From assembly GCF_003018255.1 (NCBI RefSeq), contig NZ_CP027441.1: a DNA stretch of 64,000 nucleotides; one strand, written 5' to 3'. Made by a program: the position numbers. Positions within the stretch are counted from its first letter, which is position 1. The number at the start of each line of letters is the position of its first letter. Origin of the DNA: Escherichia coli (GTDB lineage: Bacteria; Pseudomonadota; Gammaproteobacteria; Enterobacterales; Enterobacteriaceae). This document shows positions 54,001 to 57,000 of the stretch, piece by piece.

Positions 54001-57000
54001 TCCGTGAACGGTTTTCCTGCTGCCTCAAGCTCTGCACGGGCCTGATTCAGTGCTGCCGGGTTCCGCTTCGCTTTCTAGCTATCTGTCCTTCCGTTCTGGC
54101 AATATCCGCCACCTGACTGCCTATATCACTGATAAGCCCCACTGTCTGCAGACGCCTCTGCTCCTTCTCCTTGTCAAATATCGGGCTGATACTGTCATTA
54201 GCGTGCGCAGGATCACGGCTGAGGTCTGCCGGATTCTGCTTCTGATTGTCCCTGTCCCGGATGGTGATAGTGCCTTCTGCCACTGCGGCCTGAGTCGTTC
54301 CTTCCGCATGTCCGCTGTAACTTCCGGCTGATATCATGCCACCCGGCATGTTACCCTGAAATTTATCCCCGAAACTGCCACCACCGCTCAGACTGATCCG
54401 GGGGTTGAGGCTCAGTGGAACAATAACCGCCGTTAAGCGGTCATTTTAAATAGCCAAAAATCAACCAGCCAATTTACATCGTGAATCTGCGTTCTTGGCT
54501 ATCTGTTTTGGGGGGGCCAAGTTGGCTTCACTCATCCTAGCCGTTTGCGGAGCAAAAGACGTTGTTGATCTCAACAGATTGATTTACCTGTTATTGACCA
54601 TTCAATTGAACCGCTTAACCGCCTTTTTAGTTCCACTACTCCCCAACCCCCTATTTACATGAATGCAGCAATTCAGCAGCTCAGGCGTGAGGGGTATCCG
54701 GTCATGGATTCAGACGTTGAGAAACTGTCACCATTGCAGTGCGGGCATATTAATATGCAGGGGCGCTATTCATTTACAGTGCCAGAATCGGTCAGTAAGG
54801 GTGAGCTGAGAGCGTTCAATGAATAGATGTAATTTACTGATTAATAAATAATTGGCTATTTTAATTAACCTCTTAACGGAGTTTACTGTTCCATTGCTCC
54901 CCCTCCCCAACAGCAAACTGTTATTGTATGAAAAATAGCCTTAGCGTGGGATATTTAATGAGATGGTCACTCCCTCCTTCCAGGTACTATGCAGAGGACA
55001 GGCTTTCATTCGGAGAACTATCATGGAAAACATTGCGCTCATTGGTATCGATCTGGGTAAAAACTCTTTTCATATTCATTGCCAGGATCGTCGCGGGAAG
55101 GCTATTTACCGTAAAAAATTTACCCGGTCAAAGTTGATCGAATTTTTGGCGACATGTCCTGCTACAACCATCGCAATGGAAGCCTGTGGTGGTTCTCACT
55201 TTATGGCCCGTAAGCTGGAAGAATTGGGACATTTCCCAAAGCTGATATCACCACACATTCGTTAAAAGCAACAAAAATGATTTCGTCGATGCCGAGGCCA
55301 TCTGTGAAGCAGCATCGCGTCCATCAATGCGTTTTGTGCAACCCCGAACGGAATCTCAGCAGGCAATGCGGGCTCTGCATCGTGTTCGAGAATCCTTGGT
55401 TCAGGATAAGGTAAAAACAACTAATCAGATGCATGCTTTTTTGCTGGAATTTGGTATCAGCGTTCCACGAGGTTCTGCAGTTATTAGTCGGCTGAGCACT
55501 ATTCTTGAGGACAATAATTTACCTCTTTATCTCAGCCAGTTATTACTGAAACTACAACAACATTATCACTATCTTGTTGAGCAGATTAAAGAGCAGGAAT
55601 CCCAGTTGAAACGAAAGCTGAACGAAGATGAAGTAGGTCAACGTTTACTGAGTATTCCCTGTGTCGGAACGCTAACTGCAAGTACTATTTCAACTGAGAT
55701 TGGCGACGGGAAGCAGTATGCCAGTAGCCGAGACTTTGCCGCCGCAACAGGGTTGGTACCTCGACAATACAGCACGGGGGGGGGGCGGACAACATTGTTG
55801 GGCATCAGCAAGCGAGGCAACAAGAAGATTCGAACCTTGCTGGTTCAGTGCGCCAGAGTATTTATACAAAAACTGGAACACCAGTCAGGCAGGTTGGCCG
55901 ACTGGGTCCGGGAGTTACTGTGCCGGAAAAGTAACTTTGTCGTGACTTGCGCTCTGGCAAACAAGCTGGCCAGAATAGCCTGGGCACTAACAACACGGCA
56001 GCAAACTTACGAAGCATAGTGAGAGTTATATCAGTTTAAACAATCACTCATCTGGTTTTGCGGATACTGATTATTGATGATATGAACGGCCCACCGGCCT
56101 GTTGAGGAACCTGTGAAACGGAAAGGCTCATTGAAGCCGTATATTTTCTTGAGGTTCATCAGGCGCGGAACTCATCGAGGCGCGGGAATAAAATCCCATT
56201 CAGACGCCGGATAGATTCAAGCAAGCCCACTTATCGTCAAAATCGGTGTTGCAAAAACGGGAGTGACCATAGATTCCGTTTTCCAAGCGGCCCCCTCCTA
56301 TAGCCATCGCAATATCACGCCCTGAAGCACCACCAGAAACAGAATCTAATTCATTTAGAGTCAGAGTTCTCATATGATCTCCTTTTTATCTTATCGGATA
56401 TTGAATAATAATTATCACCAACAAAGTAACATATTGCAGACATTAATGCAGAGAAGCAAAATGTATGCATGGATAAAAAGTCCTTTCCTCTAAAAACACA
56501 ATCATATATAGCTAATGCAATATATATTGCGGTGGCATTTATTATAAATGCAAATAACAAATCTAATTTTGTTCTTTTTCTATCCATTACTTTCTATCCC
56601 ATTACCACACAAACACTAACGATAATGATTATCGTTCACATGGTCAAGAGTGAAGGGTAGGCGGCCCTCACCCCCCTATAAGGGGTCCGCTTGGAAAACG
56701 GATTTTCCCACGTCAAGAGAATTGAGTTGAACGAGTGGTTACATCCAGGCCAGCTAACTCACTGAACGTAAAGGCTGTACGAAATGTTCCGACCGTCCGA
56801 TAACCATTTGGCTTACTTCCGTACATTTCCTTGCGTAGATGTACAGAATTGTACGATTTCGGACACCAAAACCGCTGTTGTCCCGCCATTCTGGCGATTC
56901 CTGAAAGTCCTTTGGCTAAAAAATAGTCTTAACGTGGTTTATTTTCCGAATTCCAAACTGACCCCTTTAATGCTTCTTTCGTGAATCCGTTAATAAACTC

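Follow-up and report, generated by a model that had tools for sequence, protein, structure and literature searches.

An intact colicin V immunity gene beside a truncated cvaC, very probably the relic of a decayed operon, on a pO113-type Escherichia coli virulence plasmid

The 64,000-nucleotide stretch of the Escherichia coli contig NZ_CP027441.1 (assembly GCF_003018255.1) analysed here, hereafter the window, carries the colicin V immunity gene cvi and the first 26 codons of the colicin V gene cvaC, set among ends of Tn3-family transposons and an insertion sequence (IS). The window shares 99.97% identity with plasmid NZ_CP027372 (E. coli 2015C-3905), a 175-kb IncFIB + IncI-gamma/K1 virulence plasmid with ehxCABD, sab, espP, saa, iha, subAB, epeA and cdiBA aboard. 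The host of the locus is a pO113-type virulence plasmid of Shiga-toxin E. coli. Plasmid p_STEC1588_1 (NZ_CP129264; L002), which has a complete cvaA-cvaB/cvaC-cvi locus, served as the intact-operon reference, and plasmid-wide searches for exporter genes and cvaC were made with tblastn over the entire 175-kb NZ_CP027372. The locus is very probably the relic of a decayed colicin V operon, in which the immunity gene was kept and a transposon end, into which an IS later inserted, truncated the toxin gene. Its principal features are as follows.

56619 to 56647, minus strand: promoter-like site of cvi in the sequence (TTGACC, 17-nt spacer, TATCGT)
56621 to 56639: Fur box overlapping the promoter-like site, matching the consensus at 16/19 positions (0.01 matches expected by chance)
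56351 to 56587, minus strand: cvi, intact colicin V immunity gene, 78 aa (RefSeq WP_032257624.1)
56296 to 56373, minus strand: cvaC′, the first 26 codons of colicin V, a pseudogene
56200 to 56295, minus strand: fortuitous 31-codon extension of the cvaC′ frame and its stop, from the sequence and from alignment with IS5075 copies in unrelated plasmids
56274 to 56295, minus strand: the 22 outer bp of IR-L, a 38-bp terminal inverted repeat of the Tn21 subgroup that is split in two; directly next to cvaC codon 26
54956 to 56273, plus strand: IS4321/IS5075-like IS (IS1111 group, IS110 family), 1318 bp
54940 to 54955, minus strand: inner 16 bp of the split IR-L, across the IS and 1.3 kb from the outer part
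54909 to 54939, plus strand: last 31 bp of the interior of the IR-L transposon, with its final resolvase codons
56682 to 56965, no strand assigned: 284-bp gene-free Tn3-derived miniature element ‘B’, with repeats at both ends

The product of cvi is identical to Cvi of p_STEC1588_1 at 78/78 residues, and the Cvi protein cluster is present on more than 1000 contigs. For cvaC, tblastn aligned residues 1–26 with CvaC of p_STEC1588_1 at 100% identity, covering a 15-aa double-glycine leader and 11 mature residues, including MRTLTLNELDSVSGG. An initial annotation of this DNA, made by eye, had described an intact cvi and a cvaC keeping its leader and 11 mature residues, and both descriptions are accurate. 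DNA homology to the p_STEC1588_1 operon extends from 56296 to 56965 with 98.2% identity and ends exactly at 56296, and the non-cvaC sequence opens at 56295 with GGGGGCCGCTTGGAAAACGGAA (minus strand), which places the cvaC break at 56296/56295. Just 11 of the 88 mature colicin V residues are left, the complete mature peptide with its C-terminal cysteine pair is not present, and tblastn with CvaC returned residues 1–26 only, with no further cvaC fragment in the window or on the 175-kb plasmid. The pseudogene status of cvaC is already recorded by PGAP/RefSeq (‘colicin V, incomplete, missing C-terminus’).

In the colicin V operons of p_STEC1588_1 and pAPEC-O2-ColV (NC_007675), cvi, the cvaC leader and the 11 mature residues are identical to those found here. 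These operons also share the promoter/Fur-box region, the miniature element upstream of cvi and the position relative to the IncI-gamma/K1 repA. In the plasmid studied here, however, cvaC ends after codon 26 and neither cvaB nor cvaA occurs anywhere. The repA region of this plasmid is 97% identical to that of p_STEC1588_1 and the colicin V locus lies upstream of repA in both, a layout that favours decay of an ancestral operon in place over the import of a fragment.

The initial annotation had noted the lack of cvaAB in the window. Indeed, tblastn detected neither cvaA nor cvaB in the window or on the 175-kb plasmid, the chromosome not being part of this search. The sole CvaB/CvaA homologues on the plasmid were EhxB (27.8% identity) and EhxD (21.7% identity). 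Where the CvaB peptidase has its catalytic residues, Cys32 and His105, EhxB carries Asn and Lys. By these comparisons, the plasmid encodes no peptidase-containing ATP-binding cassette (ABC) exporter. With cvaC cut and cvaA and cvaB absent, neither synthesis nor export of colicin V is possible from the locus.

The cvaC frame breaks exactly at the outer end of a Tn3-family repeat of the Tn21 subgroup, which starts at 56295, as first proposed. The repeat had been described as 38 bp long and of Tn3/Tn21 type. Its type stands, but it is contiguous for 22 bp only, and the other 16 bp lie at 54940–54955, beyond the IS that the initial annotation had overlooked. Rejoined (22 + 16 bp), IR-L has 38 bp (GGGGGCCGCTTGGAAAACGGAAAATATCCCACGCTAAG, GGGGG…ACGCTAAG) and is identical to the Tn21 repeat at 31/38 positions and to the repeat of another copy of the 284-bp miniature element at 36/38. 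Repeats of the Tn21 subgroup are about 38 bp long, start with GGGG and end with ACGYTAAG, and IR-L has this form. Taken as one uninterrupted sequence, IR-L and the following 31 bp match, at 93–94% identity, the end of a gene annotated as ‘recombinase family protein’ in 419 plasmids, pAPEC-O1-ColBM among them; the resolvase C-terminus reads …QQTVIV-stop here versus …QQTVTV-stop in the homologous plasmids. This match suggests that a Tn3-family transposon joined its resolvase-side end to cvaC codon 26. Of its interior, only the 31 bp survive.

Aligning the window with two unrelated insertions of IS5075 fixed the ends of the IS that splits IR-L; in L004 the insertion lies next to merR, and in L005 where a Tn3-family tnpA ends. 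The IS matches both in its position and orientation in the repeat. In L005, the repeat at the end of the full Tn3-family transposase gene is itself near-identical to IR-L. The subterminal repeats with their extensions are TAATGAG followed by ATGGTCACTCCC on the left and GGGAGTGACCAT followed by AGA on the right (7 bp left, 3 bp right), and such 7-bp and 3-bp extensions beyond the subterminal repeats have been described for the IS1111 group (PMC11187229). The transposase is of the DEDD type of the IS110 family (NF033542, 209 bits, C-terminal 230 residues), and its two frame pieces share 94–96% identity with that of IS5075. By comparison with IS5075, the gene has lost 11 bp near 55256 (55256/55257), and this deletion shifts its frame; the frameshift also appears in the PGAP annotation.

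IS5075 and IS4321 prefer the terminal repeats of Tn21-like transposons (PMC8269217). Insertion of these elements in Tn21-family repeats is credited to Partridge & Hall 2003 by the papers that cite it (PMC8269217, PMC11187229), and a targeting mechanism by guide RNA (seek RNA) has been shown for the IS1111 group (PMC11187229). The insertion studied here resembles those of IS4321/IS5075 in its 22/16 position and its orientation in the 38-bp repeat, in its 7-bp and 3-bp extensions, and in having the non-coding region downstream of the transposase gene. It differs in the frameshifted transposase and in the target, a repeat that comes from a non-Tn21 transposon. The full-length identity of the element to annotated IS5075/IS4321, which have copies in at least 5000 plasmids, is also only about 89%, so that it is a distinct relative. 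The locus is a clear textbook case of an IS of the IS1111 group homing to a Tn3-family terminal repeat. One more feature was assigned within the IS.

56116 to 56148, plus strand: candidate target-recognition part of the IS guide (seek) RNA, with AAACGGAAA and ATATTTTC around a hairpin at 56125–56138

The 9-mer and the 8-mer that flank this hairpin match opposite target strands across the junction, in keeping with the guide-RNA mechanism of the group, although a single 8-mer match occurs in 18% of shuffles. The stretch may be the target-recognition part of the seek RNA. An Rfam scan of 53000–58500 matched no family and returned only a sub-threshold chance match to a snoRNA. A stretch of 11 G, read in frame, is present in the IS as well, at 55776–55787.

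On the other side of cvi lies element ‘B’, with its left repeat at 56682–56717 on the plus strand (GGGGTCCGCTTGGAAAACGGATTTTCCCACGTCAAG, ending in ACGTCAAG) and its right repeat at 56928–56965 on the minus strand (GGGGTCAGTTTGGAATTCGGAAAATAAACCACGTTAAG). The cvi-cvaC′ segment does sit between two ends that both face away from it, as first described, but it measures 386 bp rather than 387, and it shows few differences from p_STEC1588_1. The repeat at 56682–56717 had been called a second, intact copy of the left one; it is a variant of 36 bp that has decayed slightly, having lost 2 bp that other copies retain. Since the whole of element ‘B’ lies upstream of cvi in the intact operon of p_STEC1588_1 too, with homology stopping exactly at its outer end (56965), it predates the damage to cvaC. 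The two ends are therefore not two copies of one transposon end, as had been assumed: the left one ends a transposon on its resolvase side, and the right one belongs to an element that intact colicin V operons already carry, and which was accordingly not inserted during the decay of this operon.

Among PLSDB records, 271 have cvi together with essentially the entire element ‘B’, and classical ColV plasmids such as pAPEC-O2-ColV have cvi with the first ~57 bp of it. Element ‘B’ is also found without cvi, in full or in part, in many plasmids of E. coli, Klebsiella, Shigella and Salmonella. The plasmid that carries the locus has one more copy, at 19032–19317 (CP027372). Fusion of two replicons through element ‘B’ (a cointegrate) was considered and rejected, the flanks being TTTAA (cvi copy, right) versus TTAAT (19032–19317, left). 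In p_STEC1588_1, a second, inverted copy is present, and at 5387–7979 of that plasmid inverted copies of 284–286 bp bracket a segment of ~2 kb with a colicin lysis gene and a cloacin-type immunity gene. This arrangement is composite-transposon-like, with bacteriocin rather than resistance cargo, and no flanking 5-bp duplication was seen around it.

Two further features lie to the left of the resolvase remnant.

54652 to 54908, plus strand: 3′ end of a different Tn3-family transposase gene (NF033527 positions 915–954 of 954) and its repeat at 54872–54908
54401 to 54651, no strand assigned: 251-bp non-coding miniature element ‘A’ between Tn3-type inverted repeats, from a repeat search and a motif scan

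The transposase fragment truncates the IR-L transposon and is annotated by PGAP as ‘Tn3 family transposase, missing N-terminus’. Element ‘A’, with repeats GGGGTTGAGGCTCAGTGGAAC… and GGGGTTGGGGAGTAGTGGAAC…, directly abuts this truncated tnpA, has no target duplication, and is probably another miniature Tn3-derived element. In the 64-kb window, the Tn3-repeat motif scan gave six matches; the five typical ones are all located between 54.4 and 57.0 kb, and the sixth (23826–23859) looks like chance.

Both miniature elements have the anatomy of Tn3-derived miniature elements (TIMEs) described previously (PMC4133298, PMC13367494): they are likewise short (251 bp for ‘A’ and 284 bp for ‘B’), non-coding and bounded by Tn3-family repeats. 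Element ‘B’ also resembles TIMEs in having copies in unrelated contexts, and its inverted pair around the lysis/immunity module of p_STEC1588_1 is like a TIME composite. However, TIMEs, mobilised in trans by a Tn3-family transposase, leave 5-bp duplications, and matching 5-bp flanks are absent in the four copies of element ‘B’ examined; the copy beside cvi has TATAA versus TTTAA. Five diagnostic substrings of elements ‘A’ and ‘B’ were not found in the supplementary text of PMC13367494, and neither element was assigned to a named TIME. The locus illustrates how junctions in virulence plasmids are marked by miniature elements derived from Tn3.

The junction between cvaC and the repeat was found in 10 of 5,426 complete E. 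coli genomes. Two plasmids with other backbones, p65-4 and pRM10042-2, have the same junction. In these plasmids the IS is cut further by a gamma-delta/ISEc63-like transposon end, homology with the window begins only at 56061, inside the IS, and the right cdi flank (orphan cdiA modules, cdiA) is shared. The gamma-delta/ISEc63-like Tn3-family end (GGGGTTGAGGGCCAATGGAACGAAAACGTACGTTAAGG) is located at position 5874–5911 of p65-4/pRM10042-2, where it abuts the IS4321-like element at the point equivalent to 56061 of the window; it is a second, independent Tn3-family hit within the same few hundred bases. The 65,782-bp p65-4 (NZ_CP045211.1, E. coli strain 4) was named ‘colicin V plasmid pColV-4’ (PMC9453080). 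In whole-plasmid tblastn, p65-4 showed only cvi and the first 26 cvaC codons, with no cvaA or cvaB. Therefore, p65-4 cannot be a colicin V producer.

From these comparisons the following history may be proposed. An ancestral operon, with cvaA-cvaB convergent with cvi-cvaC, would have been located upstream of the IncI-gamma/K1 repA, with element ‘B’ already beside the cvi promoter. The resolvase-side end of a Tn3-family transposon with repeats of the Tn21 type would then have become fused to cvaC behind codon 26. The remaining cvaC codons, together with the whole of cvaB and cvaA, may have been lost in the same event, as an adjacent deletion by intramolecular replicative transposition, or later. 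The IS4321/IS5075-like element, directed by its guide RNA, would subsequently have entered IR-L at the canonical position and in the canonical orientation, and later Tn3-family insertions would have eroded the transposon to its last 31 bp. In this respect, the suggestion of the initial annotation that the locus is a footprint of insertions was essentially right. Two observations weigh against such a history. First, no matching 5-bp target duplications were found for any of the elements, and because of this the individual insertion and deletion steps are not reconstructable; the partner ends are lost or the flanks mismatched, which is compatible with later rearrangement and gives no positive proof of transposition. 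Second, none of the 5,426 complete E. coli genomes has an intermediate, such as a cvaC that holds a transposon but still has its distal half, or a cvaC bordered by an unsplit repeat.

The block 54401–56965 could also be read as a composite non-autonomous transposon that brought cvi as cargo into an orphan cdiA toxin/immunity array. It has inward-facing Tn3-type repeats at 54401 and 56965 and is placed between two orphan cdiA C-terminal modules, and composite structures bounded by Tn3-derived miniature elements are known to move (PMC13367494). We consider this import very unlikely. A 5-bp duplication is missing around the block (left flank ATCCG or GATCC, right flank TTTAA), and p65-4 and pRM10042-2 keep the right junction and the cdi flank while everything left of 56061 differs, so that the block is not a conserved unit. 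In addition, cvi is placed in the backbone, relative to repA, just as it is in the intact-operon plasmid, which points again to decay in situ.

The initial annotation offered an inversion into a colicin V operon as another origin. A Tn3-family transposon beside cvi would have transposed replicatively into cvaC, leaving inverted copies of itself around an inverted cvi-cvaC′ segment. The outward-facing repeats, complementary at 21/22 positions over their outer 22 bp, have the geometry expected from such a replicative inversion. However, their inner halves differ (gapped identity 31/36), and the ends come from different elements, one from the resolvase end of a transposon and the other from the 284-bp miniature element. 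Nothing has been inverted, because the order and orientation of element ‘B’, cvi and cvaC equal those of the intact operons, and no distal cvaC or cvaB fragment was found on the 175-kb plasmid. Therefore, an inversion is very improbable.

The truncated cvaC frame remains open beyond the break. The 57-codon open reading frame (ORF) at 56200–56373 on the minus strand, read correctly in the initial annotation, encodes MRTLTLNELDSVSGGASGRDIAMAIG followed by GGRLENGIYGHSRFCNTDFDDKWACLNLSGV. Its tail had been presented as novel sequence. With the ends of the IS and of the half-repeat mapped, the tail resolves into seven repeat codons (27–33, GGRLENG) and 24 codons (34–57) that are antisense to the non-coding 3′ end of the IS. 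Since 31 codons without a stop arise by chance with a probability of ~0.23, the length of the tail is not significant, and the frame very probably runs on by chance through the half-repeat and the IS antisense. No NCBIfam family was matched by the hybrid ORF, its tail or Cvi. A DNA query dominated by the tail found matches of 95–99% identity in more than 4,600 unrelated plasmid records, where this DNA is non-coding. As judged from its sequence, the tail is read-through into mobile DNA, a by-product without function.

It had also been suggested that the leader-bearing product could be exported if the cell has a CvaAB-type exporter elsewhere; the 57-residue hybrid would then be a functional peptide, cleaved after Gly-Gly. 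The double-glycine leader and the cvi-cvaC promoter are intact, and the exact ORF is present on 383 public contigs, deposited as ‘colicin-V’ or hypothetical protein. This recurrence, however, reflects one plasmid lineage with identical DNA and not selection. The origin and chance length of the tail, the small part of mature colicin V that is retained, and a plasmid whose nearest exporter homologue, EhxB, is without the catalytic Cys and His all speak against an exported product, and we regard it as extremely unlikely. No more credible is a variant in which the hybrid would be co-transcribed with cvi from the Fur promoter and exported through a chromosomal microcin-type peptidase exporter, the predicted 42-residue chimera (11 colicin V residues and 31 IS-derived residues with two cysteines) being active or a decoy.

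In the reading that we prefer, a colicin V operon decayed in place, and cvi has a different fate from cvaC. The cvi promoter is under iron/Fur control. The promoter-like site and the Fur box are retained here, suggesting that cvi is probably still a functional, iron-regulated orphan immunity gene against the colicin V of competitors. Like other orphan bacteriocin immunity genes, it is intact and has kept its own promoter without a cognate toxin or exporter, but its function is deduced here from sequence conservation alone. By keeping cvi, these Shiga-toxin strains may hold a modest advantage in competition with colicin V producers. The finding itself is ordinary: both the type of mobile-element scar and the operon in which it lies are known. 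Its importance beyond correct annotation is small: plasmids of this lineage are not to be read as colicin V producers.

The sole other Fur-box-like site of the window (16/19) is located at 2142–2160 on the minus strand (GATAATAATAATCAATAAC), directly upstream of a DUF6404 gene and beside a truncated pore-forming colicin gene. The stretch 917–2193 of the window is duplicated with 96% identity elsewhere on the plasmid, where it adjoins a colicin Ia-like gene.

The colicin V remnant is flanked on both sides by orphan cdiA C-terminal (cdiA-CT)/immunity modules. The cvi gene adjoins this cdiA-CT/cdiI array but is not a member of it. Directly left of the mobile-element cluster, within a VENN pre-toxin pseudogene, the 301-bp stretch 54099–54399 is a 98% repeat of 61214–61514, which is part of the full-length cdiA; this likeness is the usual homology between orphan cdiA C-terminal modules and the main cdiA gene.

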